Positions 45,598 to 61,420 of a stretch of 64,000 nucleotides of DNA are shown piece by piece. The translations under genes were made by a program, and so were the position numbers. The stretch's first letter is position 1; every line of letters starts with the position of its first letter. Source of the stretch: Candidatus Latescibacterota bacterium (lineage in GTDB: Bacteria; Latescibacterota; UBA2968; UBA8231); contig OZ252098.1 of NCBI GenBank assembly GCA_965248355.1, forward strand, positions 907,099-971,098, given 5' to 3'. The notes under the pieces were generated by a model. It searched no databases, was not told the DNA's origin, and saw only the letters and a list, made by a program, of their open reading frames with translations.

Positions 45598-46485
45598 ATG
45601 AACTCCGAAGAGCTGCAGGCGAAGAAGGGCCGAGGCGAGCCGATCGTGGTGCTCACCTGCTACGACAGCCCTACGGCGGCCTGGCAGGAGGCGGCCGGTG
45701 TCGACGTCGTGTTCTGCGCCGACAGCGTCGGCACGAACCTGCTCGGGTACGACGACGAGCGGCAGGTCACCATGGACGACATGATCCACCACCTCAAGGC
45801 CGTCCGGCGCGGCCTGGGGGACGGCGCCTACCTGCTCGCCGACCTGCCGTACGGCTCCTGCGACCGGCCCGGGGAGGCTCTGGACAACTCCCTGCGCTTC
45901 ACCGCTCTCGGCGCCGACGGCGTCAAGCTGGAGGGATTCAGGCCGGGAGAGGTTGCGGCCCTGAGCGAGCGCGGACTCGACGTGTGGTGCCATCTCGGCC
46001 TGAACCCGCAGATCCATGAGGCCAAGCGGATCAAGGCGCGTACGGCAAAGGCCGCCGCCCGGCTCGTGGAGAGGGCCCTCCGGCTGGAGGACGCGGGGGC
46101 GCGTTTCCTGGTCCTCGAGCTGATCCCGGAGGAGGTGGCCCGCGCCGTCACCGAGCGCCTCGCCATCCCCACCATCGGCATCGCCGCCGGCCGCTTCACG
46201 GATGGTCAGGTACTCGTCGTCACCGACCTGCTCGGTGTCCACGAACTCGATCTGCGCCACGTGCGCCGATACGCCGAGTTCGCGCGGCAGGGGAGACGGG
46301 CCTTCGCCGACTACGCCGCCGATGTGCGCCAGGGCCGCTTTCCCGCCCCCGGGCAGGCATGGCGGATGAAGGAGGGCGAGGCGGCCGAATTCGAGCGGTG
46401 GCTGGCCGGACATCCTTCCATCACGACGCTTCCTTCAGGTCCGCCTGCAGGTCGAGGCGGGGCAGGTCCACATGCCGGACCCTGA
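45598..46485 (+). CDS. panB: 3-methyl-2-oxobutanoate hydroxymethyltransferase
   Basis: VVLTCYD, DSVG, VKLEG and ELIPEEVARAVTERLAIPTIGIAAG motifs. The low-complexity C-terminal tail overlaps the convergent gene. Confidence 0.9.
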   Translation: MNSEELQAKKGRGEPIVVLTCYDSPTAAWQEAAGVDVVFCADSVGTNLLGYDDERQVTMDDMIHHLKAVRRGLGDGAYLLADLPYGSCDRPGEALDNSLRFTALGADGVKLEGFRPGEVAALSERGLDVWCHLGLNPQIHEAKRIKARTAKAAARLVERALRLEDAGARFLVLELIPEEVARAVTERLAIPTIGIAAGRFTDGQVLVVTDLLGVHELDLRHVRRYAEFARQGRRAFADYAADVRQGRFPAPGQAWRMKEGEAAEFERWLAGHPSITTLPSGPPAGRGGAGPHAGP

Positions 46486-48286
46486 CCTCGTAACGACTCC
46501 CCGGCCGGCCCCCTGACGGCAGGCTGACCGAGGTCTCCAGGGCGAGCTCAGGGATCAGCAGCAGGCCCCGCCGCCCCCTCACGTCGATCAGCTCCGCTTC
46601 GCCCTGCCATCCGGGCCGCTGTTGCAGCCAGGCCAGGGTCCAGTGGCGGTTGGCGAGCCGTTCGGTGGTGCGCACCGCCCTGGACGCGGCCTCGGCCTGT
46701 GCCCCGCGCTCCAGCATCCGCCCTTCGTCGAGTGGCTCGGTACCCGTCGCCCAGGCCCGGAGCTGCTGATGGACGAGCAGATCGAGATAGCGGCGCAGGG
46801 GGCTCGTTGCGCGCACATAGGCCTGCAGTCCCAGGCCCTGGTGCGGCGCCGGCTCTCCGCTGACGCGGGCGGGAGCCTGTCGGCGGCGCAGGGAGAAGGC
46901 GGCGGCCAGGGACCCCTCCGGGGCCGGCTGGACCGCGTCGATGGCGGGGTTCGCCTGCTGCACGGAGAACGGCATGGGGACCCCGCTCTCGGCGGCCCGG
47001 CGGGCCGTCCCTTCGCCGGCCAGCACCATGGCCTCGGCCACCATCCTCCGGATCGGGGAGGGCACGAGGGGCTCGATGTCGATGACCGGCCCCTCCCTCT
47101 CACCGCTGACGCGGATGCGCGCTTCCGGCCACTGCAGGTCGAGGGCCCCTGCGGCCATCCTCCGGAAACGGGCCAGATCGGTCAGCTGCACCAGCTGCTC
47201 GAGGATCGGGTTCCCGGCCCGGCGTTCCTGGGCGGCTCCATAGCTCAACCGCTCGACCCGCACCTGGGAAAGCAGGAAACCGCACTCCGTGACCGAGCCC
47301 TCGCCGTCGAGCACAAGGCGAAAGGACAGGGCTGGCGACTCCCCCCCTTCGCCCAGGCCCAGCGCCAGTCCATCCACCACCCGGCCCGGCAGCATCGGCA
47401 CCTGGCCATCGGGCAGATAGAGGGTGGCCCCTCGTCCCCGGGCCTCCAGGTCCGCCGGGGTGTCCGGGGCCACCACGGAGGCCACGTCGGCCACGTGCAC
47501 CCAGATGGCTCCGTCCTCGTCCAGGGAGACGGCGTCGTCGGGATCGCGGCTGCCTTCGTCGTCTATGGCGAAGGCGGGCATATGGGTGAGATCCCGCCGG
47601 GGCTCGGAGGCTGGATCTCCGACGGGCGCACGGGGCGCCTCCAGGGAGAGTCCGTTCCTGGCGGCGTAGGGCAGGTCGCTCACCGACCAGTGGCCGATTT
47701 CCAGCAGCAGAGCATGTGCGTTCTCCGCCGTCTCGGCGCGGCCCAGCTCCTTCAGCAGGGAGGAACCCTGGCGGCGGCCCCGGGCCAACTCCTCCAGGGG
47801 GCGGAGGAAGTCGTCGTCCCCGGCGGCCGCGGCGCCGCGGCGCATGCGGTCGACAAAGGCGGACCAGGCTTGGGCCCGCAGGGCCGCCTGCTCGCGGCGG
47901 AGGCTCTCCTCGGCCACCTCCCCGGAGGAGCGGGCGAGCACGGCCTCCGGCGATCCGGAGAAGTGCAGACCGTCGGCGACCAGTCGCCAGCTGGCCCATA
48001 CGGCGGCCGGTGTGACGCCGCCGAAGAGGAGCTCGGCGAGAGTCGCCAGATCGCAGGAGCCTTCGCCGTGGAGCAGGTCGCGCACCACGTCGACGGGCTC
48101 GACCGGTTCCGGGGCGGAGAGGCCGGCCAGCGTACAGGGTCCGGGATGCAGCAGCGTCACGTCTTTCGGCCGAACGCGGCGCAATCCACCCTCGGTCTCG
48201 ATTTCCAGGCGGTTCGTCCCGGGTTTCTTGACGCAGGCTTGACGGCCCTTGTAGAGTACGAGCCCGCCTGTGGGCAGTTCACTCAT
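46421..48286 (-). CDS. RNB-domain exoribonuclease (RNase II/R family)
   Basis: Start ATG at 48286 preceded by GGAGGATCGGGA. Motifs: AIDDEGSRDPDDAVS, ATLYLPDGQVPMLP, TSPLRRYLDLLVHQQL. Confidence 0.85.
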   Translation of the reverse strand: MSELPTGGLVLYKGRQACVKKPGTNRLEIETEGGLRRVRPKDVTLLHPGPCTLAGLSAPEPVEPVDVVRDLLHGEGSCDLATLAELLFGGVTPAAVWASWRLVADGLHFSGSPEAVLARSSGEVAEESLRREQAALRAQAWSAFVDRMRRGAAAAGDDDFLRPLEELARGRRQGSSLLKELGRAETAENAHALLLEIGHWSVSDLPYAARNGLSLEAPRAPVGDPASEPRRDLTHMPAFAIDDEGSRDPDDAVSLDEDGAIWVHVADVASVVAPDTPADLEARGRGATLYLPDGQVPMLPGRVVDGLALGLGEGGESPALSFRLVLDGEGSVTECGFLLSQVRVERLSYGAAQERRAGNPILEQLVQLTDLARFRRMAAGALDLQWPEARIRVSGEREGPVIDIEPLVPSPIRRMVAEAMVLAGEGTARRAAESGVPMPFSVQQANPAIDAVQPAPEGSLAAAFSLRRRQAPARVSGEPAPHQGLGLQAYVRATSPLRRYLDLLVHQQLRAWATGTEPLDEGRMLERGAQAEAASRAVRTTERLANRHWTLAWLQQRPGWQGEAELIDVRGRRGLLLIPELALETSVSLPSGGRPGSRYEVRVRHVDLPRLDLQADLKEAS

Positions 48287-48377: not shown

Positions 48378-49871
48378 GTGTCCCGGGATCTCTCTCTCGG
48401 CATCGACCTGGGCACCACCAGCGTCAAGGTCCTGCTGCTCCACCGGAGCGGACGGGTGGAGGCGACCGCCTCGGCCGGCTACCCCCTGCACACCCCGAGG
48501 CCCCGGTGGGTCGAGCAGGAGCCGGGGGACTGGTGGCGGGCCACGTGCGAGGCCTTGCGCCAGGTTCTGCGGGCGATAGAGCCCGGCCGCATCGACGGAC
48601 TCTCCCTTTCGGGGCAGCTGAACGGCGGGCTCTTCCTCGACGAGAGGCTGGAGCCGCTGCGACCGGTGCCGATCTGGCTCGACCACAGGGCCGAGGAGGT
48701 CTGCCGGCGGGTGCATGCCAGCAGGGCGGCGGCTTGTCTGCTCGAGAGGGCCCGGCAGCGCTTGACGCCCGTCAACACGCTGGCCAAGATCCTCTGGGTG
48801 CGCGACCACGAACCGGAGGTGTACGAGAGGACCCGCGTCGTCCTGCTGCCGAAGGACTGGCTTCGCCTGCGCCTCACCGGCAGCCCGGGCACCGACCTGA
48901 CCGATGCCTCGGTGACCGCCGCCCTCGACCTGCAGGAGGGATGCTGGTCGTCGGAGATCCTCCAGGCCCTGGGTGTGGACGAGGGCCTGTTTCCATCCCT
49001 GTCCCGGTCGACCGACGTGGTCGGCGCCGTCACCGAGGAGGCGGCGGCCGCCACCGGACTGCCGGCCGGCATCCCGGTGTGCGCCGGAGGCGGGGACATG
49101 CCCTGTCTGGCGGTCGGCAGTGGCGTGGTTCGTCCGGGGGTCGTCTCCCTGGGGATCGGCACCGCCGCCCACGCCACGACCTACGCTCCACGGCTCGAGA
49201 CCGCTTCGGAGGCCGCCACCGAGGGGTTGTGGCCCATGTGTCATCCCGACGCCCGCGGCTACGCCTGGCTCGGCTGCTCCTTCACCGGGGGCGAGAGTCT
49301 GCGCTGGCTCACCGGGGTCCTGGAAGCCGGCTTCGAGGACCTGCTGGCCGGCGCCGCCGGAATCGATGCCGGGAGTGAAGGACTGGTCTTCGCCCCCTGG
49401 CTGGAAGGCCGGGCCACCCCGGGCCCCGACCCCTCCGCCCGGGGATGCTTCCTGGGACTGAGCCTGCGCCACGGCCGCGGCCACATGGTCCGCGCCGTCC
49501 TGGAGGGTGTGGCCTACGACCTGCGAGAGTCGCTGGAGTGCTTCCGTCTGGCCGGACTGGAGGAGCACGAGATCCGCATCGGGGAAGGGGGCCTGCGCTC
49601 CGCCTTGTGGCGGCAGATCGTGGCGGACGTGGTTGGCGTTCCGGTGCGGGTCCTGGCCGTGGAAGATCCATCCGCTCTCGGCGCGGCCCTGATCGCCGCC
49701 GTCGGAACGGGGATGTTCGACGACTTCGAGGAGGCCTGCGACGCGGCGGTAGGGCTGGCCGGGAGGGTGGAACCGGAGGACGAGGCGCGCTCGGTCTACG
49801 AGGAGGGGTTCGAGGAGTACCAACAGATCTATCCCGCCCTGCGGGACTGGCACGGAGCCCGCGGCGCGTGA
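48378..49871 (+). CDS. FGGY-family carbohydrate kinase (xylulokinase-like)
   Basis: GTG 48378 within ORF 48270..49871 gives VSRDLSLGIDLGTTSVK. Motifs: GGGDMPC, GGESLRWL and GGLRSALWRQIVADV. Confidence 0.87.
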   Translation: MSRDLSLGIDLGTTSVKVLLLHRSGRVEATASAGYPLHTPRPRWVEQEPGDWWRATCEALRQVLRAIEPGRIDGLSLSGQLNGGLFLDERLEPLRPVPIWLDHRAEEVCRRVHASRAAACLLERARQRLTPVNTLAKILWVRDHEPEVYERTRVVLLPKDWLRLRLTGSPGTDLTDASVTAALDLQEGCWSSEILQALGVDEGLFPSLSRSTDVVGAVTEEAAAATGLPAGIPVCAGGGDMPCLAVGSGVVRPGVVSLGIGTAAHATTYAPRLETASEAATEGLWPMCHPDARGYAWLGCSFTGGESLRWLTGVLEAGFEDLLAGAAGIDAGSEGLVFAPWLEGRATPGPDPSARGCFLGLSLRHGRGHMVRAVLEGVAYDLRESLECFRLAGLEEHEIRIGEGGLRSALWRQIVADVVGVPVRVLAVEDPSALGAALIAAVGTGMFDDFEEACDAAVGLAGRVEPEDEARSVYEEGFEEYQQIYPALRDWHGARGA

Positions 49872-50110
49872 AGTCCCGACCCCCAGCCGAGGTGGAGGGA
49901 CTCCGCGACGAGCCCCGGCGGCATCCGCTGGTATGGGTGGTGTACCTGCTGCTGTTCGCCGGCGCCGTTCCCTGGTACTGGCCCACGGGCTACCGGGGCC
50001 CGCTCGTCCTCGGCCTGCCTCTGTGGGCCGCCGTGAGCCTGGGCGCCGTGGTGCTCATGGCCCTGTGGACGGGGTTCGTGATCCGGCGCTGGTGGCGGGA
50101 GGAGGACTGA
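49868..50110 (+). CDS. DUF3311-like small membrane subunit of the SSS transporter
   Basis: GTGA overlap with the kinase stop. 80 aa with two TM helices and a W/P-rich loop (PWYWPTGYRGPLVLGLPLW). It lies immediately before an SSS gene, as is typical. Confidence 0.7.
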   Translation: MKSRPPAEVEGLRDEPRRHPLVWVVYLLLFAGAVPWYWPTGYRGPLVLGLPLWAAVSLGAVVLMALWTGFVIRRWWREED

Positions 50111-51574
50111 ATGGAATCCGGATCCGGCTTCGGCATCGGCGCCCTCCTTCTCATCGGCCTCTACCTGGTCATGATGATCGGCGTCGGCTGGATCGGCCGA
50201 ATGCGGCGCCAGAGCGACAGCATGGCCGACTTCTACCTGGCCGGGCGCTCCATGGGCCTGCCGGTGCTGCTGCTGACCCTGTACGCCACCCAGTACAGCG
50301 GCAACACCCTGTTCGGGTACACGGGCAAGGCCTACCGGATCGGGTTCGAGTGGACGGTTTCGGTCATGTTCATGTTCTCCATCATCGTCGGCTACCTCCT
50401 CTTCGCGCCACGGCTGGTGGTCCTGGCCCGGCGCCTGGAGTTCATCACCCCGGGCGACTACATACGGCACCGCTTCGGCTCGCCCTTCCTGACCCTGCTG
50501 GCCACCCTGCTCATGATCTACGCCCTCGGCAACTACACCCTGGCGCAACTCAAGGCGATGGGGGTGGCGGTGGAGGGGATCACCGACGGCGGCATCCCCT
50601 CGGCCTACGGCATCATCGCCCTGGCGGTGATCATGGTCGTCTACGAAACCCTCGGGGGCATGCGCTCCGTGGCCTGGACGGACGTCATCCAGGGCGTCGT
50701 CCTGCTCACCGGCTTCTCCATTCTCCTGTTCCTGGTGCCCGGGCTCGGCGGCGGCCTGACGGCGATCGTGGAGGAGCTGAGCGTGAGCGAGCCCGCCATG
50801 GTCGGGGCGCCCTCCCTGGAGATGTGCAACACCTGGATCAGCTTCGTCCTGCTCCTCGGCTGCGGCGCCGCCATCTATCCCCAGGCCATCCAGCGGCTCT
50901 ACGCCAGCCGCTCGGTGAGCGTCCTCAAGCGGTCGCTCACGATCATGGCCTTCCTGCCCCTGACGACGACCCTGATCGCCCTCCTCTGCGGCCTCACGGG
51001 GCGCGTCGTACTCCCGGGCCTGGAGGGGGTCGAGACCGATCAGGTCCTCGGCCGTCTCTGCGCTCTGATCATGGAGCAGTCCGTGGCCGGTTACTGGCTC
51101 GTGGTGGTGATCTTCGCCGCCGCCCTCGCCGCCCTCATGTCCACGGCCGACTCCGCCCTGCTGAGCATCTCCTCCATGTTCACGCGCGACATCTACCAGG
51201 TCCACCTGCGGCCCCAAGCGGCCCAGTCGGAGTTGACCCTGGTGGGCAAGATCGTCTCCTGGGTGGTGGTGGCCGTGCTCGTGGTCATCGCCATCAGCAC
51301 CGAGAAGACCCTCGTGCGCCTGCTGGAGCTGAAGTTCGAGGTCCTCATCCAGATCGTGCCCTGCTTCTTCCTCGGGCTGTACTGGCGCCGGCTGCGGACC
51401 CGGGTGGTCACGGCCGGCCTGCTCACGGGCCTGGCCATCGCCCTCGGCCTGACCGCCGCCGGCGTGAGCAAGCTCTACGGCTTCCACGCCGGCGTCGTCG
51501 GTCTGGGCGCCAACTTTCTCATCTGCGCCGCCGGCTGCCTGCTGGCGCCGGCGGAAAGGGAGGACGAAGGGTGA
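50111..51574 (+). CDS. sodium:solute symporter (SSS) family transporter
   Basis: 487 aa, 13 predicted TM helices, DFYLAGRSMG motif. Starts 1 nt after the DUF3311 stop. Confidence 0.9.
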   Translation: MESGSGFGIGALLLIGLYLVMMIGVGWIGRMRRQSDSMADFYLAGRSMGLPVLLLTLYATQYSGNTLFGYTGKAYRIGFEWTVSVMFMFSIIVGYLLFAPRLVVLARRLEFITPGDYIRHRFGSPFLTLLATLLMIYALGNYTLAQLKAMGVAVEGITDGGIPSAYGIIALAVIMVVYETLGGMRSVAWTDVIQGVVLLTGFSILLFLVPGLGGGLTAIVEELSVSEPAMVGAPSLEMCNTWISFVLLLGCGAAIYPQAIQRLYASRSVSVLKRSLTIMAFLPLTTTLIALLCGLTGRVVLPGLEGVETDQVLGRLCALIMEQSVAGYWLVVVIFAAALAALMSTADSALLSISSMFTRDIYQVHLRPQAAQSELTLVGKIVSWVVVAVLVVIAISTEKTLVRLLELKFEVLIQIVPCFFLGLYWRRLRTRVVTAGLLTGLAIALGLTAAGVSKLYGFHAGVVGLGANFLICAAGCLLAPAEREDEG

Positions 51575-52695
51575 AGATCACCTCCGTGGACATATGGACC
51601 GTCGTGGTGCCGACGATCCCGGGGCGGGTGCATAGCCCGGAATGGGTCCCCGAGACGGGCTGGGACCAGGTGCCCAAGCATCTCCTGCGGCTGAACACGG
51701 ACACCGAGCTGCACGGGATCGGGGAGACGGGACGGGGTGTCCCCCTGGACCAGGTGCAGGAAGGGGCGCGGCTCCTGCTCGGCAGCGATCCCGAGAGGTT
51801 GTGTCTCCGGGACATCTACAGCGTGCCCTGCGGGCGGGTCCTCGACGGCAGCGAACGCGGAGTGCCGGCCGGGGTGCAGCAGGGCCCCGCCTACGCGGCC
51901 TTCGAGATGGCCGTCCTCGACCTGGTGGGCCGTGCCCGGCAGCTGCCCGTCCACGCCCTGCTGGGGGGCGCCGTGCGCTCCCGCGTGCGCGCCGACTACT
52001 GGATCGGCCACCAGACCCCCGAGGACGGCAGGCGTTCGGTCGAGCGCGCCCTGCGGCTGGGGTTCCACGGGGTCAAGATCAAGTGCAAGCTGGAGGAGCC
52101 GATGGAGGAGCGCCTGCGCGCCATGCGCGACGCGGGGGGCGTCGACTTCAAGGTCACCGTCGACCCGAACGAGCGGTTCCATACGGCGGAACAGGCGATC
52201 GAGCTGGCCCACCGGCTCGTGGCCCTGGGCAACGTCGAGGTCTTCGAGGATCCGATACCGAAGTCGGACGTGGAGGGCTACGTCCGCATCCACGAGGAGG
52301 TGGACGCGCCCATCGCCATGCACCTGGGCAGCGGAGCGGCCATGCTGAAGGCGCTGGAGGCCGGATGCGTGGACTGCTTCAACCTGGGCAGCGGCCCCGT
52401 CCGGATGCCGGATCTGGCGCAGATCTCCGAGGCCGCGGGCCTGCCCTGCTGGCACGGGTCCGGCAACGACCTGGGGATCATGGACACCTCCTATGTCCAC
52501 GCCGCGGCCCTGGCCCCCGCCTGCACCATGGCCTCCGACTTCGTCGGCAGCTGGACCCGGGAGGACGACCTCATCGTCGAGCCCATCGAGTTCGTCGACG
52601 GCTACGTGGCCACACCGCAGCGGCCGGGCCTGGGGTGCGACCTGGACCTGCGGGCCCTGCCCAGGTACACCCGGGCCCACGAGGAGATCCGTTGA
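51571..52695 (+). CDS. enolase-superfamily protein (MR/MLE family), atypical; paralogue of 3213..4217
   Basis: GTGA overlap with the upstream stop. VKITSVDIWTVVVP, KxK (VKIKCK), DPN, FEDP and PGLGC motifs. Confidence 0.85.
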   Translation: MKITSVDIWTVVVPTIPGRVHSPEWVPETGWDQVPKHLLRLNTDTELHGIGETGRGVPLDQVQEGARLLLGSDPERLCLRDIYSVPCGRVLDGSERGVPAGVQQGPAYAAFEMAVLDLVGRARQLPVHALLGGAVRSRVRADYWIGHQTPEDGRRSVERALRLGFHGVKIKCKLEEPMEERLRAMRDAGGVDFKVTVDPNERFHTAEQAIELAHRLVALGNVEVFEDPIPKSDVEGYVRIHEEVDAPIAMHLGSGAAMLKALEAGCVDCFNLGSGPVRMPDLAQISEAAGLPCWHGSGNDLGIMDTSYVHAAALAPACTMASDFVGSWTREDDLIVEPIEFVDGYVATPQRPGLGCDLDLRALPRYTRAHEEIR

Positions 52696-54446
52696 TGGAT
52701 CCGCCTGCCGCGGCGCCGTCCCCCTTCACAGCCGCGGTACGGGACTGGAGGCGCTCCTTCGACGACCGCGGCTCCGCCCTTGGCCGGGATCTGCAGCAGC
52801 TCTACGGCGAGGAGTGTGAAGCCTGGCGCCGCCGATACGGGGAGGCCCTCTCGGCTTTCGTCGATCGGTATCCCGGGGGCGGGGAGGGACGCCCGGTGGT
52901 CATCAGCCGTTGTCCCGGACAGATGAACATCATGGGCATGCACATCGACTACGGCGGCATGCCCAGCCTGCGGCTGGCCGTGCGCGGCCACGACACGGTC
53001 ACCGTGGCGGCGGCGCGCGACGACGACCGGGTGTGCCTCCACAGCATCTACCAGGGCGACCGGGGCGCCGCCCAGGTCTTCGAGCCCGTGGACTTCCGCC
53101 TGTCGGACATGGCCTCCGCCGAGCCGCTGGCCTCGCGGCAGGACCTGATGGACTACGCAGGGACGGTGTGCACCCGCCGGGAGCGGGAGACGGGAAACAC
53201 CATGGACGACCACTGGGGCATCCTGCCCCGGGGCCAGCTCGTCTACCTCGACAGCTGGCTGCGGCTGCACGGCCGCCGGCCGCGGGGCATGGACGCTCTC
53301 CTGTTCAGCAACGTCTCGCCCTCGGGAGGCATGTCCTCCTCGTCGGCCCTGGTCATCTCCACCGCCTTCGCCGTCCTCGGGCTCCACGGCCTGCGGCCGG
53401 GCCGCGACATCTCCTGGGAGGACGTCATCGACGGCGTCGGCACCTCCGAGTGGATCCGGGGCACGCGGGGCGGCACGGCCGACCACGGCGGCATGGTCCT
53501 GGGCCGCGCCGGGCGGCTGGTGAGCGTCGGCGTCTTTCCCGCCCGGGACTGCGGCTCGGCGCCGCTTCCGGAGGAGTACGTGGCCGTCCTCCTCGACAGC
53601 GGGGTGCCCCGCGTCTACGACGAGGCCGGGAAGGAGGAGACCGTCCTCGCCTACCCGTTGGGCACCTACCTGCTTCGGGACATGCTGCTGCCGGGGCGCT
53701 TCGGCACCCCCGGGTGGGAGGGCTTGGTCCCGGGGTTTCGCGAGCGGGTCGAGATGATCCGCGACCTGACGCCGGAGAACCTGGGCCTCACCACGGCCCA
53801 GCTGTGCGAGCTGCTGGCCATGGTGCCGGAGCGCACCAGCCTGGCGGAGCTCGAAGCCGGCGCCCGCCGCTCCGGCGGGGGGGAGGCGTACGCTGAGATG
53901 CATCGGCGTGACGTGGGGGAGCGCTTTCCCCATACCCGGCCCGACTCCCCGATCCTGCTGCGGCGGCGGTTCGTCTTCGGCCTCGCCGAGCAGGACCGGG
54001 TGGCGGCCGCCGCCGACCTCCTGGCCGCCGGTGACGTGGGCACCGCTTTCGAGCTGGTTCGCCTGTCCCACGCGGGAGACCGGGATGCCGAGGTGCCCCG
54101 GGAAGAGCTGGCGTCGCTGGCCGAGACCTCGCTCCGAGGTGGTCCAAGGGCCCGCCTCGCCTTCGTGGCCGGCGGGTATGGACGCATGACGGAGGCCTAC
54201 GACCGCGTGGTGACGACCCTGAACGACTTCCTCGAGGGGTATGGGAAGGACGCCGGGGCGGTGCAGCGGCTGGGGGCCGGATGGGGCGGCAACCTGGGCG
54301 GGCTGATCTCGCGCCGGTTCCTCGCCGGCCCGGAGCGCGACGCCCTGGAGGGTGTCATCGCCGGTCTCGGTCTTCCGGCGGCCGATCTCGACCGCTCCGT
54401 GGCCACCCCGGGAGACGGCGCGTGCCTGCTGACCCTTCCCTCCTAG
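52695..54446 (+). CDS. GHMP-superfamily sugar kinase (galactokinase-like, 583 aa)
   Basis: TGATG junction with the upstream gene. Galactokinase signature RCPGQMNIMGMHIDYGG. GHMP motif II PSGGMSSSSALVIS. Long helical insertion/C-terminal region. Confidence 0.85.
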   Translation: MDPPAAAPSPFTAAVRDWRRSFDDRGSALGRDLQQLYGEECEAWRRRYGEALSAFVDRYPGGGEGRPVVISRCPGQMNIMGMHIDYGGMPSLRLAVRGHDTVTVAAARDDDRVCLHSIYQGDRGAAQVFEPVDFRLSDMASAEPLASRQDLMDYAGTVCTRRERETGNTMDDHWGILPRGQLVYLDSWLRLHGRRPRGMDALLFSNVSPSGGMSSSSALVISTAFAVLGLHGLRPGRDISWEDVIDGVGTSEWIRGTRGGTADHGGMVLGRAGRLVSVGVFPARDCGSAPLPEEYVAVLLDSGVPRVYDEAGKEETVLAYPLGTYLLRDMLLPGRFGTPGWEGLVPGFRERVEMIRDLTPENLGLTTAQLCELLAMVPERTSLAELEAGARRSGGGEAYAEMHRRDVGERFPHTRPDSPILLRRRFVFGLAEQDRVAAAADLLAAGDVGTAFELVRLSHAGDRDAEVPREELASLAETSLRGGPRARLAFVAGGYGRMTEAYDRVVTTLNDFLEGYGKDAGAVQRLGAGWGGNLGGLISRRFLAGPERDALEGVIAGLGLPAADLDRSVATPGDGACLLTLPS

Positions 54447-55636
54447 AGGCCCCGTCCCTGCTGGAGGGCGTCCGGGTCCTCGATTTCACCCGCGTCCTGG
54501 CCGGTCCGTACGCGACCATGGTGCTGGCGGATCTCGGCGCCGAGGTGATCAAGATCGAGCTGCCCGGCGGCGGTGACGAATCGAGGAGCTTCGGTCCCTT
54601 CGTCGCCGGGGTCAGCGCCTACTATCTGAGCGTCAACCGCGGGAAGAAATCGGTCACCCTGGACCTGCGCACGCCCCGCGGCGCCCAGCTGGCCATGGAC
54701 CTCGTGGAGCGGGCCGACGTTCTGGTCGAGAACTTCCGCCCCGGCACCATGGCCCGCTTCGGCCTCGACTACAAGCGGGTCTCGGCGCGCAATCCGCGCC
54801 TGGTGTACGCATCGATCTCCGGTTTCGGCCAGAGCGGACCGTACTCCCACCGGCCGGCGTACGACGTGATCGTGCAGGCCATGAGCGGCCTGGCCTCGAT
54901 CACGGGCCTGCCGGGTCAACCGCCGGTCCGCGTCGGCTCGTCGACGGCGGATCTCAGCGCGGCCCTGTTCGCCTGTGTCGGACTACTGGCGGCCCTGGGG
55001 CGGGCCCGGGAAAGCGGGCGGGGCCGGCATCTGGACGTGTCCATGCTCGATTGCCAGGTGGCCCTTCTGGAGAACGCCGTCGCCCGCTACGACGTGACCG
55101 GGCAGGTCCCGGGTCCTCTTGGATCTCGCCATCCGGCGATCACACCCTTCCAGTTCTTCGCCGCCGCCGACGGATGGGTGGTGGTGGCGGCCGGCAACGA
55201 CCGCCTCTTCGCCCGACTCTGTCAAGTGCTGCAGCGGCCGGAGCTGGCCGCTGACGCTCGCTTTGCAGGCAACGCCGGGCGCACCGAGCACCACGGCGCC
55301 CTCGAGTCGGAGCTCGCGGCCATCTTCGCCAAGGGTTCGGTGGCCGAGTGGCTCGACCGCCTGGAGGAGGCCGGGGTCCCCTGCGGTCCCGTCAACGACG
55401 TGGCCGACCTGGTGCAGGATCCACAGGTCCGCTCGCGCGGGATGATCCGGCGGCAGCCCTGCGATGGGGAGACGGTGGCCGTTCCGGCCTCCCCTCTGCG
55501 GTTTGCGGGTGAGACGCCGGAGGTGGACCCGAGGCCGGCGCCGGACCTCGGTGAGCACACGGAGTCCGTCTTGCAGGAGCTGCTCGGCCTCGACGCCGGC
55601 GAGCTGGGCTCGATGCGGCAGGACGGCGTCATCTGA
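54422..55636 (+). CDS. family III CoA-transferase (CaiB/BaiF/Frc family)
   Basis: GTG 54422 within ORF 54281..55636. Motifs: VRVLDFTRVLAGPYATMVLADLGAEVIKIE, ENFRPG, YDVIVQAMSG (catalytic Asp region). Confidence 0.87.
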   Translation: MPADPSLLEAPSLLEGVRVLDFTRVLAGPYATMVLADLGAEVIKIELPGGGDESRSFGPFVAGVSAYYLSVNRGKKSVTLDLRTPRGAQLAMDLVERADVLVENFRPGTMARFGLDYKRVSARNPRLVYASISGFGQSGPYSHRPAYDVIVQAMSGLASITGLPGQPPVRVGSSTADLSAALFACVGLLAALGRARESGRGRHLDVSMLDCQVALLENAVARYDVTGQVPGPLGSRHPAITPFQFFAAADGWVVVAAGNDRLFARLCQVLQRPELAADARFAGNAGRTEHHGALESELAAIFAKGSVAEWLDRLEEAGVPCGPVNDVADLVQDPQVRSRGMIRRQPCDGETVAVPASPLRFAGETPEVDPRPAPDLGEHTESVLQELLGLDAGELGSMRQDGVI

Positions 55637-55659
55637 CCCTCCATCGAGAAAGGCATGGG

Positions 55660-56559
55660 ATGATCCCCCTGATCAGCAGTCTGTGCTGCGGCCCCATGGA
55701 GATCTGTCAGCTCCCCCGGCTGTGGTGGAAGGCCTCGTTGAAGGCCGCCGGCCGTCTGGCCGAGGACTATCCGGAGTGCACTCACGTCCTGGACAGCATG
55801 GTCCTCGAGCGGCTCGGCCTCGATCGCCAAGCAACCCTCGAGCATATCCACTCGGCCCGGCCCGACTATCTGGCCTTCGAGGCCTGGGTCCGCGAGCAGA
55901 CAGGGGGTGAACCCTCCCGGGAACTGGGCGAGGAGTGGAACGGCTTGATCCGCTCCCGGGTGCACGAGCAGTGGAAGATCGACGACATCTACTCGACACT
56001 GGGCTTCGACGGATCTGAGGGCATCACTTCAGCCGTGGTCCTCAACCACTTGGAGGACTGGCACTTCTGGCATTCCCGCGATCTGGGAGATCCGGGGCTG
56101 GCCGCCTGGGCCGGACGCACCGTGCCCCTGGTGGCAACACTCGACTACGGTCCTCTGGGTGTCTGCCAGCTGCCGCGCACCTGGCACAAGATCCTGCTGC
56201 AGGCGGCGGGCCTTCTGCACGCCGAATACCCGGGGCTGGGCGGCGGCCTCGACCGGAGGGTCGTGGTGGACGTGCTCGGTCTCGACGCCGGCCGGGTCGT
56301 CGAGCACCTGACCTTGGAAAGACCCCGCTATCTAGAATTCGAAGGCTGGGTGCGGGAACAGCTGGGAGGGCGCGACGTGAGCGGTCCGGTGGGGGAGTGG
56401 AACGAGTTCGTGAGCAACCGGGTCCACCAGGCCGACAAGCGGGCCGACATCCACGACAACCTCGGACGTCCCGACGACGGCTCGCTCCCGGCTTCGGCCG
56501 CAGTCCTCAACCACTTGGAGGACTGGCACCTGGCCCACGGCATCTTGTGGGCTGGTTGA
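55660..56559 (+). CDS. tandem-duplicated DUF5069-like protein, function unknown
   Basis: Two ~150-aa repeats: CQLPRLWWKASLKAAGRLAEDYPEC...VLNHLEDWH and CQLPRTWHKILLQAAGLLHAEYPGL...VLNHLEDWH. The pattern resembles the DUF5069 family as I recall it. Confidence 0.75.
   Translation: MIPLISSLCCGPMEICQLPRLWWKASLKAAGRLAEDYPECTHVLDSMVLERLGLDRQATLEHIHSARPDYLAFEAWVREQTGGEPSRELGEEWNGLIRSRVHEQWKIDDIYSTLGFDGSEGITSAVVLNHLEDWHFWHSRDLGDPGLAAWAGRTVPLVATLDYGPLGVCQLPRTWHKILLQAAGLLHAEYPGLGGGLDRRVVVDVLGLDAGRVVEHLTLERPRYLEFEGWVREQLGGRDVSGPVGEWNEFVSNRVHQADKRADIHDNLGRPDDGSLPASAAVLNHLEDWHLAHGILWAG
56038..56064 (+). repeat. 27-nt exact intragenic repeat, copy 1
   Basis: gtcctcaaccacttggaggactggcac (encodes VLNHLEDWH), identical to 56503..56529. 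Confidence 0.95.
56503..56529 (+). repeat. 27-nt exact intragenic repeat, copy 2
   Basis: Identical 27-mer 465 nt (155 codons) downstream of copy 1, in the same reading frame. Confidence 0.95.
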
Positions 56560-56582: not shown

Positions 56583-58145
56583 TCAGGGCTGGAAGACGAG
56601 GGCCCGCCCGGGCAGGGGCTCGCCCAGATCGGAGACCGCCACCCCGGCGTCGATGACGGGCGTGCCGTTGACGAGGACGTAGTCGATGCCCGCGGGCAGC
56701 TGTCGGGGGTCGTCGTAGGTGGCCCGGTCGGCCACCTCATCGGCGTCGAACACGACCAGATCGGCGAACCAGCCCTCCCGGACCTGCCCGCGCTCGGCAC
56801 ACCCGAAACGCCGGGCCGGCCGGTCGCTGAGCTTGGCCACCGCCTCCTCGAGGCTGAACAGGCCCTGGTCGCGCACGCAGGGTCCGAGCACGCGAGGCGC
56901 CGACCCGTACATCCTCGGGTGCACCTGGCCGTCGGGGAAGTAGATGCCGTCGGTGCCCATGACGTAGCAGTCGTGGGCGAGGAAGGGCGCGATCAGCTCG
57001 TCCTCGCCGTGGTGGAAGACCAGGAGCACGGCCAGGTTCTCCTCGATCAGCAGGTCGCACAGGGCGTCCTCGGGGGACTTGCCCACGTCGGCCACGTACT
57101 CGGACAGCAGCCGGCCGATGTAGCGCTGGTTGTCCCGTGAGGGGAGCCAGGCGATGTGCATGTTCTCCAGCCGGGTCCGGGACAGGTCCCGGGCGAACTC
57201 GCGGCGCAGCCTGCGGTGGCTCAGCTTGCCCAGCACCTGAAGGGAGCCCTCCTCCCACACCTCGTGGGGCAGGAGGAAGTTGAGCATCGTCGACCCGGGC
57301 AGGTAGGGGTAGACGTCGAAGGAGAAGCTCACCTCCTGGCGGGCGGTGCCGTCGACATACTCCAGCAGTTCCTCGATCTGCTCGGGCGTCGTGGCCTTCA
57401 GGTGGGAGATGTGGACGGGCACCCCGGCGCGGCGCCCGATCTCCACCGCCTCGGCCACCCCCTCCAGGGTCCCCTTCCGGTAGCGCACGTGGCTCACGTA
57501 GAGCCCGTGGGGAGCCATGGGCTCGCAGACTTCGGCGAGCTCGTCCACGGTGGCAAACCACTGGGGCATGTATTCGATACCCGTGGACAGGCCCACCGCT
57601 CCCTCCGCCATGCCCCGCTCCACAGCGGCCCGGATGCGCGTCATCTGGAAGTCGTCCGGCACCGCCCGGCTCCATCCGGCGGCCATGGCGCGCACGTTGC
57701 CGTACGGCAGGTGGGCGATGGCGTTCTGCGCGGTGCGCCGGTGCAGGCCGGCCATGTAGTCGCCCAGGGAGCGCCAGCCGTCGTACTCCTCGAAGAGCAG
57801 CCCGTTCAGGGCGCGCAGGTAGTGGATCCACTCCGGCGCCGTGTCCTCGTCGACGGGCGCGTAGGAGATCCCGTCGGCCATGATGACCTCGGTGGTGAAG
57901 CCCTGGGCGGTCTTCGGGACCAGGTGGGGGATCTTGCGCAGCCAGGCGTCCGAGTGGTTGTGGACGTCGACGAATCCGGGGGTCACGATGCGGTTCGAGG
58001 CATCGATCCGCCGGCCCGCCTCGGCGCTGGAGAGATCCTCGGCGACCGCCTCCACCCGCTCTCCGCGCAGGCCCACGTCGGCGCGCTTCCGCGGCGCCCC
58101 GGTGCCGTCGATGACGGTGCCGCCGGCGATGACGATATCGAACAT
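56583..58145 (-). CDS. D-aminoacylase (N-acyl-D-amino-acid deacylase family amidohydrolase)
   Basis: Start ATG at 58145 preceded by GGAGGTGAT. Motifs: FDIVIAGGTVIDGTG, PGFVDVHNHSD, HISHLK, DLVVFD. The 1052-aa ORF in the track is this gene plus a junk N-terminal extension. Confidence 0.9.
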   Translation of the reverse strand: MFDIVIAGGTVIDGTGAPRKRADVGLRGERVEAVAEDLSSAEAGRRIDASNRIVTPGFVDVHNHSDAWLRKIPHLVPKTAQGFTTEVIMADGISYAPVDEDTAPEWIHYLRALNGLLFEEYDGWRSLGDYMAGLHRRTAQNAIAHLPYGNVRAMAAGWSRAVPDDFQMTRIRAAVERGMAEGAVGLSTGIEYMPQWFATVDELAEVCEPMAPHGLYVSHVRYRKGTLEGVAEAVEIGRRAGVPVHISHLKATTPEQIEELLEYVDGTARQEVSFSFDVYPYLPGSTMLNFLLPHEVWEEGSLQVLGKLSHRRLRREFARDLSRTRLENMHIAWLPSRDNQRYIGRLLSEYVADVGKSPEDALCDLLIEENLAVLLVFHHGEDELIAPFLAHDCYVMGTDGIYFPDGQVHPRMYGSAPRVLGPCVRDQGLFSLEEAVAKLSDRPARRFGCAERGQVREGWFADLVVFDADEVADRATYDDPRQLPAGIDYVLVNGTPVIDAGVAVSDLGEPLPGRALVFQP

Positions 58146-59545
58146 CAGATCACCTCCACTTCCAGGTCGTCGAACCAGGAGGTGCCGGCGCCGTCCTGGC
58201 GCAGGACGATCTCCACGGCGCTGACCTCCGGCGGGGAAGGTCCCCGGATCTCGACGGCCAGGCGGGTCCAGTCCCGGGTTCCCGTGAGACGCTCGGAGCA
58301 GACCAGGGGATAGCGCTCCGGGTGGTTGTAGATGATCCAGCGCAGGGCCAGGCAGGAGCCCCGGCCGGAGACGGATTCGGTGCGAACCCAGAGGGCGACC
58401 CGGAAGCCGGTGTTCTCCCGCCAGCGCTGGGTGAAGGCGCCCTCGCCCTCGCGGTCCATCGACCATTCGGTGACCCCGTCGGCCTCGCGGTGGATCTTCA
58501 GCGAGCAGTCGTCGCTGCGGCCGTGGTCCCGGCACCACTCGGCGCCGTCGCCGGCGGGCAGCCACGGCCAGGGATCGAGCTCGCCGGCGGGCCGGTCGAG
58601 TCGCAGGGGCTTCTCGAAGCTCGACCGGCGCTCGTACCGCGGCAGCTCGCGGAAGCCGGCGAACTCCACGGGGGGCACGGGCTCGGCTCGGCGGCGAAGC
58701 TCCGCCCCCTTGTCGTCCGGGCACAGGCGGATGCGGAAGCGCTCGCAGATCGGCTCGTACAGCTCCTCGGCCCGATAGCGGGAGCTCAGGTGGATGTCGT
58801 AGCCCCAGTTGCACACAGAGGCCGAGGTTCTCCCCGCGGTATCCCCGAGGAACTCGAAGGCCGGGTTGTGGCCGGGGTCCGCGGCCAGCACGAAGAGGCC
58901 GCCATCGCGGAAGGACCGTGGGCCGGGAATGCCGGTAGCCATGTGGTTGAGGGGCATCTGCCATACCGTGCCGTCGGCGGGCTCGGCGAGCAGGTGGGTA
59001 TAGCCGTGCGGGGTCCAGGCCCCCTCGAAGGCGACGGTGGGAGCGGGCACGTCGCAATACCAGGGGTCGCTGTACTCGAAGGAGACCCGCTCCACGCCGG
59101 GCCGGTGAAAGACCTCCGGGCTGTGCAGCTCCAGGTGGCAGGCGAAATCGTACACGTAGGAGCCCAGATCCTCGTCCCAGGTGATGGTGAGGACGCGGCG
59201 GGACGTGGCGACGCCGCCGGGGTCGGCGGTGGTCACGGCCAGGGTGAGGCGGTCGCTGCCGCGCCCGCCGACGGTGACCTCCTTCAGCTCGGTGGTGATG
59301 ATGTGGCCATCGAAGTTCCAGAACAGCTGCGTCCCGGCCACCAGGGCACGCCCGCCGGGAGAGAGAGTGAGATCGCGGAGCACGACGGGTCGGAGGTTGC
59401 GGTCGAAATAGCGCAGGTTCTGCTCCGGCTGCTCGACGACGGCCCGCTCGAGCCGGGCGATCGGTTCCCCACCGTCGCAGATCCATTCCTCCCCGGCCGT
59501 CACGCCGCCGCGGGTCACAAGGTCGAAGCGGCTCCGGTGGGCCAT
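58145..59545 (-). CDS. hypothetical protein (466 aa) with C-terminal jelly-roll/CBM-like region
   Basis: Well-balanced composition, unlike the overlapping frames. Its stop shares one base with the D-aminoacylase ATG (TGATG). The C-terminal part (WTRLAVEIRGP...VEIVLRQDGAGTSWFDDLEVEV) looks like a carbohydrate-binding-type beta sandwich. No signal peptide. Confidence 0.75.
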   Translation of the reverse strand: MAHRSRFDLVTRGGVTAGEEWICDGGEPIARLERAVVEQPEQNLRYFDRNLRPVVLRDLTLSPGGRALVAGTQLFWNFDGHIITTELKEVTVGGRGSDRLTLAVTTADPGGVATSRRVLTITWDEDLGSYVYDFACHLELHSPEVFHRPGVERVSFEYSDPWYCDVPAPTVAFEGAWTPHGYTHLLAEPADGTVWQMPLNHMATGIPGPRSFRDGGLFVLAADPGHNPAFEFLGDTAGRTSASVCNWGYDIHLSSRYRAEELYEPICERFRIRLCPDDKGAELRRRAEPVPPVEFAGFRELPRYERRSSFEKPLRLDRPAGELDPWPWLPAGDGAEWCRDHGRSDDCSLKIHREADGVTEWSMDREGEGAFTQRWRENTGFRVALWVRTESVSGRGSCLALRWIIYNHPERYPLVCSERLTGTRDWTRLAVEIRGPSPPEVSAVEIVLRQDGAGTSWFDDLEVEVI

Positions 59546-59703: not shown

Positions 59704-60534
59704 ATGACGATCATCGATCCCCATACCCACGTCTGGGTCAATGACCCGCGCTTTCCCTGGCCCGCCGAGAACCCCGCTCCGCCCGCCGAGGACCGGACGG
59801 CCGAGATGCTCCTCGAGGAGATGGCCGCCCACGGGGTGGAGAAGACGGTGCTGGTGCAGGTGATCCACTACCGGTGGGACAACCGCTACGTCGTCGATGT
59901 CATCGGGCGCTACCCGGACAGGTTCATGGCCGTGGGCCGGATCAACCCCGAGGACCCGGCGGCGGCGGACCATCTCAGCGAGTGGACGGAGCAGGGCCTC
60001 CACGGCGTGCGCCTGAGTCCGTCCGTCGACCCTTCGGGGGACTGGTTCGCCGACCCTGCGAAGATGAACCCCGTCTTCGCGCGGGCCGAGTCCCTCGGAG
60101 TGCCCCTGCTGCTGTTGACGCGGCCGCCGCGGCTGCGCGATCTGGTGCCCCTCCTCGACCGCCACCCGGATCTCGACCTCGTCATCGACCACATGGCCGA
60201 TGTCCATCCCGACGACGCCGAGGGACGCCGGCTCCTGACCGATCTCGCGAGATACCAACGGGTCTACGTGAAGATCAGCCACACCTGGTCGATCTCCGGA
60301 GAAGGCTTCCCGTGGGTCGACACCCACGGCCTGGTGGAGCAGGTCTACCAGAGCTTCGGGGCCCGGCGCATCATGTGGGGCACGGACTGGCCGGTCTGCC
60401 TGAGCAAGGCGGAGTACGGCCAGACCCTGTCCGTGGTCCGCGACCACATGAGCGCCTTCATCGCCCCCGAAGACATGGAGTGGGTCCTGGGCCGGACCGT
60501 CCTTCGGCTCTGGCCCTTCAAAGAAGGGGAGTGA
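59704..60534 (+). CDS. amidohydrolase_2 family metal-dependent hydrolase (sugar-lactonase-like)
   Basis: ATG 59704 within ORF 59557..60534. Motifs: IIDPHTHVW, VIDHMA and WGTDWP, typical of the COG3618-type TIM-barrel hydrolases. Confidence 0.87.
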   Translation: MTIIDPHTHVWVNDPRFPWPAENPAPPAEDRTAEMLLEEMAAHGVEKTVLVQVIHYRWDNRYVVDVIGRYPDRFMAVGRINPEDPAAADHLSEWTEQGLHGVRLSPSVDPSGDWFADPAKMNPVFARAESLGVPLLLLTRPPRLRDLVPLLDRHPDLDLVIDHMADVHPDDAEGRRLLTDLARYQRVYVKISHTWSISGEGFPWVDTHGLVEQVYQSFGARRIMWGTDWPVCLSKAEYGQTLSVVRDHMSAFIAPEDMEWVLGRTVLRLWPFKEGE

Positions 60535-60537
60535 CCC

Positions 60538-61407
60538 ATGCTGAAGATCGGCATGGTGGGCGCCGAGAACAGCCACACCCTGGCCATCGCCAAGGTGCTC
60601 AACGTCGACAAGCGGCTTCGGGGCGTGCGCGCCACCCACGTGTGGGGGGAGACGCGCCGCTACGCCCGGGAAGCGGCGGAGGCCGGCCAGATCCCGTGCA
60701 TCGTCACCCGTCCGGAGGAGATGATCGGCGAGGTCGACGCCATCGTGGTGGACCACCGCCACGGCAAGTTCCACCTGCTGGCGGCCCAACCCTTCCTCGA
60801 GACCCGGGTGCCCATGTTCATCGACAAGCCGTTCTGCTGCCGGCGGGCCGAAGGGCGGCGGTTCCTGGCCCGGGCTCGTGAGCTGGAAGTGCCGGTCTGC
60901 TCGTTCTCGACGCTGCCGAAGCAGCAGGCCTTCCGCGACCTGAAGCGGATCTCCGCCAAGCTGGGGCCGATTCACACCGTGGTCTCCACCGGCCCCTGCG
61001 ACATACGCTCGAAGTGGGGCGGAATCTTCTTCTACGGCATCCACCAGGTCGACTTGATCCTCCGGCTCGTGGGCTACGACTTCTACCGGGTGCAGATGGT
61101 CAAGGGGGCGGGCGCCAACCACAGCGCCAGCATTCTCTTCCGATCCGGTACGGTGGCGACCATGAACCTCATCGGCGAAGGCACCCCCGGTTTCCACCTC
61201 TCCGTGATCGGGGAGGGCGGGAGGGTGGATCAGCCGATCCCCATGGACGAGAGTCCGTACCTGACGGGAGTCCGCGACTTCGTGCGCATGTTCAAGACGG
61301 GGGAGACGGAGGAGACGGAGCAGACCATGCTCGGGCCCGTGGCCGCGCTCGAGTCGCTGGAGAAGTCGGTGGCCAAGCCCTTCGCACGCGTGGGGGCCGG
61401 GATCTGA
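60538..61407 (+). CDS. Gfo/Idh/MocA-like oxidoreductase (short form)
   Basis: MLKIGMVGAENSH Rossmann-like start and a DKP motif (MFIDKPF). 289 aa. Confidence 0.78.
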   Translation: MLKIGMVGAENSHTLAIAKVLNVDKRLRGVRATHVWGETRRYAREAAEAGQIPCIVTRPEEMIGEVDAIVVDHRHGKFHLLAAQPFLETRVPMFIDKPFCCRRAEGRRFLARARELEVPVCSFSTLPKQQAFRDLKRISAKLGPIHTVVSTGPCDIRSKWGGIFFYGIHQVDLILRLVGYDFYRVQMVKGAGANHSASILFRSGTVATMNLIGEGTPGFHLSVIGEGGRVDQPIPMDESPYLTGVRDFVRMFKTGETEETEQTMLGPVAALESLEKSVAKPFARVGAGI

Positions 61408-61420
61408 ACGGGAGCAAGGG

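Follow-up and report, generated by a model that had tools for sequence, protein, structure and literature searches.

What a bacterium gains from encoding two kinases of different families, an enolase-superfamily enzyme and a coenzyme A (CoA) transferase side by side is the question raised by seven adjoining genes of a Candidatus Latescibacterota bacterium. The genes occupy positions 48378-56559 of a 64,000-nucleotide (nt) stretch of contig OZ252098.1 (assembly GCA_965248355.1, positions 907,099 to 971,098), called the window here. In order, they encode an FGGY carbohydrate kinase, a small DUF3311-like membrane peptide, a sodium:solute symporter (SSS), the enolase-superfamily member, a long galactokinase (GalK)-like GHMP kinase, a family III CoA-transferase and a tandem DUF5069 protein. 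The operon is most likely a lineage-specific, condensed operon for nutrient uptake and catabolism, inherited within one Gemmatimonadota family. Tentatively, its locus may catabolise an acidic carbohydrate derivative, one that bears a carboxylate; sugar acids and N-acyl- or amino-sugar acids would be examples. This is compatible with the acidic or amino sugar suggested by an earlier, sequence-only reading of the same DNA. That reading had also found that no canonical pathway fits the set, which is still the case: apart from XylB there is no NCBIfam equivalog, and neither a solved structure nor a paper was found that assigns the set. All of the proteins come from known superfamilies. New are the gene combination, the fixed coupling of the GHMP kinase to the CoA-transferase and the enolase-superfamily variant with a histidine at a metal-ligand position.

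Family assignments were made by Pfam and NCBIfam model searches of the window proteins. These searches agree with the seven families listed in the sequence-only reading (the DUF3311 match being weak), and all of the junctions that it described are present in the sequence. The G+C content of the window is about 70%, and open frames therefore occur on every strand. The GC content at the third codon position (0.86-0.99) marks one plus-strand frame per gene from 48400 to about 56500. On inspection, the seven genes are co-directional and are joined by overlaps or by spacers of no more than 23 nt. The FGGY kinase and DUF3311-like genes share a GTGA at 49868-49871, the TGA of the latter is directly followed by the ATG of the SSS gene (50108-50113), another GTGA at 51571 joins the SSS gene to the enolase-member gene, and the latter meets the GHMP kinase gene in a TGATG at 52693-52697. 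The GTG start of the CoA-transferase gene at 54422 lies within the kinase gene, 25 nt before the kinase stop at 54446, and the 23-nt spacer runs from the CoA-transferase stop (55636) to the DUF5069 ATG (55660). GGAGG-like Shine-Dalgarno sequences precede most starts, and a sequence scan found no credible terminator inside the operon. Upstream, the boundary is a divergent RNase II-type gene, whose likeliest start (ATG 48286, with a Shine-Dalgarno sequence) is separated by 91 nt from the GTG start of the FGGY gene at 48378. The candidate promoter (Table 1) sits in this divergent region, by the start of the RNase II gene. Downstream, a convergent D-aminoacylase-like gene ends at 56583. The junctions, together with the single coding strand, predict one compact transcription unit, as had been proposed.

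To collect related loci, an alignment of the GHMP kinase served as the seed of a pattern scan. This yielded 65 orthologous loci, each with flanks of up to 10 kb. Gene presence was scored by tblastn, using as queries the window proteins and the proteins found in gaps of other loci. Counts were taken only among loci that extend far enough, so that the denominators vary from 52 to 58. In the 168 Gemmatimonadota genomes searched, orthologues of the long kinase (41-87% identity) are present in 69 of the 75 genomes of the window's GTDB family, which makes the locus nearly universal there; other families of the phylum contain only relatives of about 30% identity. Five of the seven operon genes recur across the 65 loci. 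The linkage of these core genes (83-90%) is far above that of flanking housekeeping genes (17-26%) at the same divergence. The co-conservation proposed earlier thus stands for the five core genes. It does not extend to the FGGY and DUF5069 genes, which are patchy among the related loci (Table 1) and are lineage-specific additions.

The commonest layout of the related loci is DUF3311 > SSS > M42 peptidase > enolase member > (GDPD) > lipoprotein > lipoprotein > TonB-dependent receptor > GHMP kinase > CoA-transferase > (small lipoprotein) > D-aminoacylase-like < 466-residue protein < AAA_5 ATPase > 612-residue protein > Amidohydro_2 > Gfo-like > PfkB. In most relatives the two lipoprotein genes and the receptor gene, about 3.3 kb in total, separate the enolase-member gene from the kinase gene. 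An example of the long form is locus L046, where the genes of the SSS, the M42 peptidase, the enolase member, two lipoproteins, the TonB receptor, the kinase and the CoA-transferase share one strand and either overlap or are less than 80 nt apart, and where a match to the small DUF3311-like gene is found just upstream of the SSS gene. The window operon lacks the M42, GDPD, lipoprotein-receptor and AAA_5 components and has the FGGY and DUF5069 genes; three M42 genes are found elsewhere in its genome. This comparison of layouts indicates that the seven-gene operon is a condensed derivative of a longer operon. The sequence-only reading had placed the operon at 48378-56559; the conserved locus reaches past 56559, to 63821.

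The enolase-superfamily member is divergent. Among solved structures it is closest to the GlucD-related proteins 3vc5 and 3vdg, which have no assigned function (E 1e-28 to 1e-30 in profile searches). The residues K169-x-K171, D198, E226, H251, D268 and H295 are invariant in 53 orthologues. The KxK motif at the end of strand 2 is present as K169-I-K171 and aligns with KLKGG of 3vc5. A His-Asp dyad is recognizable in the alignment, H295 corresponding to the His of the HSN motif and D268 lying at the end of strand 6. The active site is thus predicted to have the mandelate-racemase/GlucD arrangement, consisting of the KxK motif and the His-Asp dyad. Two of the metal-ligand positions are conserved (D198 and E226). 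The third, however, is occupied by the invariant His251 instead of the usual Glu, Asp or Asn, and the 'MH' that contains it aligns with 'TN' of 3vc5, 3vdg and 4dye. The description of this enzyme as atypical is supported. We know of no characterised enolase-superfamily subgroup that has a histidine at this position. His251 may accommodate a transition-metal cofactor or contact an amine of the substrate. An identification of the enzyme as L-fuconate dehydratase is unsupported, there being no FucD structure among the matches listed.

The CoA-transferase gives full-length matches to YfdE (326 bits) and SUGCT (313 bits) and is about 45% identical to these oxalate and glutarate/hydroxymethylglutarate (HMG) enzymes, as judged by eye from the YfdE alignment. 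The Asp of the ADL motif, which is catalytic in family III CoA-transferases, is retained and aligns with that of YfdE. The protein is below every NCBIfam equivalog cut-off; its best match is succinate-glutarate CoA-transferase. These similarities suggest that the acceptor is a short dicarboxylate. In the related loci where it directly follows the kinase gene (Table 1), the gap ranges from -22 to +38 nt. The overlap in the window predicts that the kinase and the CoA-transferase are translationally coupled. This partnership is specific to the window's family: a link of the two beyond the family is not upheld, because distant kinases have other neighbours. YfdE is an acetyl-CoA:oxalate CoA-transferase and SUGCT a succinate-hydroxymethylglutarate CoA-transferase. 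To our knowledge, the genomic partner of neither is a GHMP kinase, unlike that of the enzyme described here. A literature search found no paper on the three enzyme types together.

The GHMP kinase is about 190 residues longer than galactokinase (typically about 390 residues) because of an N-terminal extension and insertions. Its Pfam scores are barely above the cut-offs (GalKase_gal_bdg 26.1 against 23.1 and GHMP_N 23.7 against 22.3), and the galactokinase equivalog TIGR00131 is not reached (41 bits, cut-off 227). A profile search nevertheless found N-acetylgalactosamine (GalNAc) kinase 2a2c at E 1.5e-13. The P-loop GMSSSSAL, the Asp in GGTADHGG and the motif III sequence GAGWGG align with those of GalNAc kinase and are invariant in the kinase alignment. 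The hallmarks of galactokinases are all kept: the GalK signature, motif II (the P-loop), motif III and the catalytic Asp. The ESM Atlas contains only unnamed clusters of long GalK-like proteins, in other phyla, and a literature search on AbGHMP gave nothing.

Distant relatives of the kinase in other Gemmatimonadota families (27-30% identity) provide some clues to its chemistry. In two loci (L072:7991-13036 and L079:7274-11249) the kinase gene adjoins one for an NTP_transferase domain, that is a sugar-1-phosphate nucleotidyltransferase, and in a third (L076:8826-11891) the two are fused into an FKP-like protein of 1021 residues. The FKP of Bacteroides is a bifunctional fucokinase/GDP-fucose pyrophosphorylase. 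The analogy with this enzyme argues that the long kinases would phosphorylate the anomeric hydroxyl of a sugar. In the window's family, however, the partner of the kinase is the CoA-transferase and not a nucleotidyltransferase. An M81 (MlrC-like) peptidase gene is also found beside the distant kinase in both L072 and L079, followed in L072 by a DeoC-type aldolase gene.

The SSS protein reaches no curated NCBIfam cut-off, its best match being PanF (166 bits, cut-off 328), and its best solved relative is the sodium/galactose symporter vSGLT (92 bits). The DUF3311 match of the small peptide is weak (E 0.009, below the Pfam cut-off). A hydrophobic stretch is visible in its sequence, and its gene keeps its place immediately 5' of the SSS gene (Table 1); the peptide is likely to be the partner of the symporter. 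The FGGY kinase passes the equivalog level of TIGR01312 XylB (406 bits, cut-off 380) and fails the E. coli-type model PRK15027 (262 bits, cut-off 912).

Beyond the operon, the convergent amidohydrolase matches D-aminoacylase 1m7j (E 2e-76), N-acyl-D-Glu deacylase 3gip (E 3e-66) and OngB 9kb1 (E 4e-47). Its gene shares a TGATG junction, and hence a predicted translational coupling, with that of a 466-residue protein, which has no Pfam, NCBIfam or Protein Data Bank sequence match. An AlphaFold2 (AF2) model of this protein (mean predicted confidence, pLDDT, 84) was compared with known folds using VIA-align. Residues 4-282 resemble aldose-1-epimerase-like domains (Z 14-15), and residues 305-466 form a β-sandwich like that of carbohydrate-binding modules (CBMs; Z 13-14). 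The model and the shared junction suggest that the protein is a carbohydrate-directed partner of the amidohydrolase. Further downstream lies a module of three genes, for a lactonase-like Amidohydro_2 protein of the cog3618 type, a short Gfo/Idh/MocA-like protein and a KDG-kinase-like PfkB protein. The last of these, noted earlier at 61421, is real according to Pfam. The NCBIfam matches of the module, to L-fucono-1,5-lactonase (74 bits) and to models of KDG/KDGal kinases, all stay short of the cut-offs. In some of the related loci a DUF4380 mutarotase is encoded downstream.

Table 1. Features of the seven-gene operon, its surroundings in the window and its related loci (lengths in amino acid residues, aa)
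Feature	Position	Strand	Basis	Related loci
FGGY carbohydrate kinase, xylulokinase-type, 497 aa, accessory	48378..49871	+	Pfam FGGY_N/FGGY_C; TIGR01312 XylB	5/54
DUF3311-like small membrane peptide, 80 aa	49868..50110	+	weak Pfam DUF3311	45/54 (immediately 5' of SSS gene)
SSS sodium:solute symporter, 487 aa	50111..51574	+	Pfam SSF, 158 bits	45/54
Enolase-superfamily enzyme, 374 aa, MR/GlucD-type active site (predicted)	51571..52695	+	Pfam MR_MLE_C, 117 bits	48/54
Long galactokinase-like GHMP kinase, 583 aa	52695..54446	+	Pfam GalKase_gal_bdg and GHMP_kinases_N	
Family III CoA-transferase, 404 aa, YfdE/SUGCT-like	54422..55636	+	Pfam CoA_transf_3, 454 bits	52/58 (directly 3' of kinase gene)
Tandem DUF5069 protein, 299 aa, all-helical, accessory	55660..56559	+	Pfam DUF5069, 44 bits	10/57
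Sigma-70-like promoter candidate, upstream of operon	48228..48257	+	consensus scan, 9/12 matches; 1 site vs 0.4 expected	
D-aminoacylase-family amidohydrolase, 520 aa, convergent with operon	56583..58145	-	Pfam Amidohydro_3	35/52
466-aa protein, mutarotase-like supersandwich and CBM-like domain	58145..59545	-	AF2 model	19/52
Module: Amidohydro_2 lactonase-like, short Gfo/Idh/MocA-like, KDG-kinase-like PfkB	59704..62554	+	Pfam	19 to 30 of 52
M42 peptidase, between SSS and enolase member				45/54
TonB receptor				31/54
RNase II, flanking housekeeping gene				14/54
PanB, flanking housekeeping gene	45598..46485	+		9/54

A carbohydrate substrate is indicated by the GalK-type kinase, whose relatives are paired with nucleotidyltransferases, by the XylB-type kinase, by the mutarotase/CBM-like fold of the 466-residue protein, by the lactonase-, Gfo- and KDG-kinase-like genes (with the DUF4380 mutarotase of some loci) and by the kinship of the symporter to vSGLT. 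Enolase-superfamily chemistry requires a carboxylate. Because of this chemistry, with GlucD-related proteins as the nearest structures, and because the CoA-transferase is of a dicarboxylate type, the substrate is expected to be an acid. Taken together, the two sets of signals make an acidic carbohydrate derivative the most economical guess.

From gene order, family membership, active-site residues and co-location we infer the substrate and every reaction of the following scheme. The SSS symporter and its DUF3311-like subunit would import the compound. In the relatives, the TonB-dependent receptor and the two lipoproteins would first bring a larger precursor across the outer membrane, and the M42 hydrolase would trim it. 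K171 and the H295-D268 pair of the enolase member would abstract the proton adjacent to the carboxylate, with the metal held by D198, E226 and H251, and the enzyme would then dehydrate or epimerise the substrate to give a 2-keto-3-deoxy acid, which the neighbouring KDG-kinase-like PfkB protein could phosphorylate. The neighbouring D-aminoacylase-like enzyme and its mutarotase/CBM-like partner might strip an N-acyl group. The long GalK-like kinase would phosphorylate a sugar hydroxyl, probably the anomeric one, the CoA-transferase would turn a short dicarboxylic-acid product into its CoA ester, and the accessory XylB-type kinase would act on a pentulose-type product.

The closest described logic is that of the ong cluster of Pseudoalteromonas prydzensis, which serves the catabolism of oxidised chitin (the amino-sugar acid GlcNAc1A). 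Outer-membrane uptake there is by a TonB receptor and inner-membrane import by an SSS protein, and the enzymes include a D-aminoacylase-like deacetylase and KdgK (PMC9537276). The structure of OngB, the GlcNAc1A deacetylase, has been described (PMC12017989). GlcNAc1A is a sugar acid and is formally also an N-acyl-D-amino acid (PMC9537276). The present locus resembles the ong cluster in having an SSS, a D-aminoacylase-fold enzyme, a KDG-like kinase and, in the relatives of the window, a TonB receptor. However, it lacks the GH20 enzyme OngA, the pyridoxal phosphate (PLP)-dependent deaminase OngC, RidA and a MurR-type regulator, whereas the ong cluster contains no enolase-superfamily enzyme, GHMP kinase, CoA-transferase or M42 peptidase. 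The locus would thus not belong to the ong-type clusters, as neither a GH20 nor a PLP-deaminase match is found among its genes in Pfam and NCBIfam, and its hydrolase appears nearer to D-aminoacylase. If the substrate is an oxidised or N-acylated sugar acid, then ong-type logic extends to another phylum with different enzymes.

Oxidative sugar-acid routes of the De Ley-Doudoroff or L-fucose type employ a dehydrogenase, a cog3618 lactonase, an enolase-superfamily dehydratase, a KDG-type kinase and an aldolase. The locus contains candidate counterparts to several of these, namely the lactonase-like Amidohydro_2 protein, the Gfo-like protein, the MR/GlucD-type enolase member and the KDG-kinase-like PfkB protein, all within 11 kb. 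The differences are that the enzymes are below the equivalog cut-offs, that the locus has no aldolase and that the third metal ligand would be His. The oxidative routes, in turn, have no GalK-like kinase or CoA-transferase. Profile matches of the enolase member to the GlucD-related proteins 3vc5, 3vdg, 4it1, 3va8 and 4dye/2oqh are its best (E 1e-24 to 1e-30). The KxK motif, the Asp and Glu ligands and the strand-7 His can be aligned with those of these proteins, but the identity is low and 'MH' replaces 'TN'.

Several findings weigh against the acidic-carbohydrate assignment. Only XylB among the enzymes reaches a substrate-specific curated cut-off, and we know of no sugar-acid route that has a role for a kinase/CoA-transferase pairing. 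No aldolase, GH20 enzyme or OngC-like deaminase was seen among the locus genes, and the only PF01081 aldolase of the genome is at 4.64 Mb, 3.7 Mb away. The score of the amidohydrolase is higher with D-aminoacylase (261 bits) than with OngB (164 bits), and the M42 peptidase of the relatives points to peptide or D-amino-acid substrates. Furthermore, all 65 orthologous loci apparently come from one GTDB family. Shared ancestry therefore explains part of the conserved gene order, and the co-conservation counts for less as evidence than the raw numbers imply. Finally, lineages differ in the genes that they have lost, which fits several loosely linked modules: loci L055 and L058 have kept the M42 and kinase genes and are missing those of the SSS, the enolase member and the CoA-transferase.

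The last two points are also what would be seen if the operon were a mosaic of two or three unrelated modules (the transporter with the enolase member, the kinase with the CoA-transferase, and the accessory FGGY and DUF5069 genes) that deletions have made adjacent and that are co-transcribed without a common substrate; within a single family the order is perhaps inherited and not selected. The 3.3-kb separation of the enolase-member and kinase genes in most relatives and the patchiness of the FGGY and DUF5069 genes point in the same direction. In the long form, however, overlapping or abutting junctions on a single strand persist all the way from the SSS gene to that of the CoA-transferase, and the linkage of the core genes is far above that of the flanking housekeeping genes at the same divergence. 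A mosaic is therefore rather doubtful; if the operon is one, the finding is ordinary.

The M42 peptidase leads to a different idea, the scavenging of peptide-linked or N-acylated D-amino acids, for example from cell-wall debris or D-glutamyl compounds. After import by the TonB receptor and the SSS, the M42 peptidase and the D-aminoacylase-like enzyme would cut amides, the enolase member would racemise or epimerise an N-acyl amino acid, the CoA-transferase would activate a dicarboxylate such as glutarate, and the kinase would salvage an attached sugar. The position of the M42 gene between those of the SSS and the enolase member, the resemblance of its product to lysyl and glutamyl aminopeptidases (its best NCBIfam matches), the closeness of the amidohydrolase to D-aminoacylase and N-acyl-D-Glu deacylase, the succinate-glutarate match of the CoA-transferase and the M81 peptidase beside distant kinases all agree with such a role. 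N-acylamino-acid racemases and dipeptide epimerases are likewise among the matches of the enolase member (E 1e-20 to 1e-23). However, a second catalytic Lys, which every known MLE-subgroup racemase or epimerase employs on strand 6, is missing from it: there is a gap at this position in the alignment with the MLE 3i4k, and no Lys occurs in residues 268-280. In addition, the window operon is without an M42 gene, the three of the genome being elsewhere, and the lactonase-, KDG-kinase- and XylB-like proteins and the mutarotase-fold protein would have no role. Scavenging of this kind is thus unlikely.

None of the four readings, these three with the one given next, explains the reaction of the kinase/CoA-transferase pair. 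Its translational coupling and its adjacency in most loci (Table 1) could mean that both enzymes act on the same molecule, the transferase making a hydroxyacyl-CoA and the kinase phosphorylating its hydroxyl, which would thereby become a leaving group. Levulinate catabolism includes a 4-hydroxyacyl-CoA kinase step to which this would be analogous without homology. No enzyme that uses a sugar 1-phosphate was recognised in the loci of the family, whereas distant relatives carry nucleotidyltransferases. The kinase, however, retains the galactose-binding signature that is characteristic of kinases acting on the anomeric position of sugars, the neighbourhood has no recognisable phosphate-eliminating enzyme, and a GHMP kinase acting on an acyl-CoA has no known precedent, which makes this scheme very improbable. 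A wider proposal combines the two oddities of the locus. The coupled kinase and dicarboxylate-type CoA-transferase might perform an undescribed two-step activation, phosphorylation plus formation of a CoA thioester, in a new catabolic route, jointly with the His-liganded enolase member as a new subgroup that could, for instance, dehydrate and hence deaminate 2-amino-2-deoxy sugar acids, thus substituting for the PLP enzyme OngC. This, too, is a long shot, if less so than phosphorylation of an acyl-CoA. Pantothenate catabolism, suggested by the PanF-like SSS and the nearby panB, is rejected because panB is linked in so few loci and the kinase is GalK-like and not like pantoate kinase (the archaeal pantoate kinase is a GHMP enzyme), and a mevalonate/HMG link drawn from the similarity to SUGCT is rejected on the same grounds.

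Gemmatimonadota are abundant in soils, sediments and sponges, and little of their metabolism has been bench-tested. The locus couples predicted uptake across both membranes to four cytosolic enzymes in a combination that matches no described route, and is therefore a well-defined target in the search for new enzyme functions. Two of its oddities are concrete and testable, namely the invariant His in the enolase member and the constant pairing of the kinase with the CoA-transferase.

The Pfam match of the DUF5069 protein covers its first half, and the alignment and the AF2 model (pLDDT 82) indicate that the second half is an internal repeat, resulting in two helical halves. The sole fold match of the model is 3omd, itself a protein of unknown function, and a literature search on DUF5069 gave nothing. 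Three small conserved proteins of about 174, 170 and 113 residues, with lipoprotein-type signals and no family match, are encoded in the related loci (L046:6819-7862 and L020:12918-13259); two precede the TonB-dependent receptor and one follows the CoA-transferase. The latter, s113, was considered as a single-domain DUF5069 protein, which is rejected because its conserved motifs are different and it has a lipobox. With E values up to 5 allowed, Pfam still gave no significant match for the 466-residue protein, two lipoproteins, s113, unk612 and unk419. A MoxR-like AAA_5 ATPase gene followed by that of a protein of about 612 residues lies between the 466-residue and lactonase-like genes in about 22 of the 65 loci (L020:16299-19114 and L033:18507-21518, for example) and is absent from the window.

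Upstream of the operon, a lone panB gene (ketopantoate hydroxymethyltransferase) lies by the RNase II gene, two genes from the PanF-like symporter. Its proximity to the symporter is probably coincidental, considering how rarely the linkage is kept. Just upstream of both panB and the RNase II gene, a large plus-strand open frame (42444-45572) weakly resembles fungal glucuronoyl esterase (PF22244, 27.5 bits). The source names of homologues of the operon proteins indicate Gemmatimonadota. Locus L001 is collinear with L003 and L004, and their kinases are 85-86% identical to that of the window, yet the labels of the National Center for Biotechnology Information (NCBI) differ (Gemmatimonadaceae as opposed to Candidatus Latescibacterota). 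The NCBI record titles of these metagenome-assembled genomes are thus no reliable taxonomic guide.

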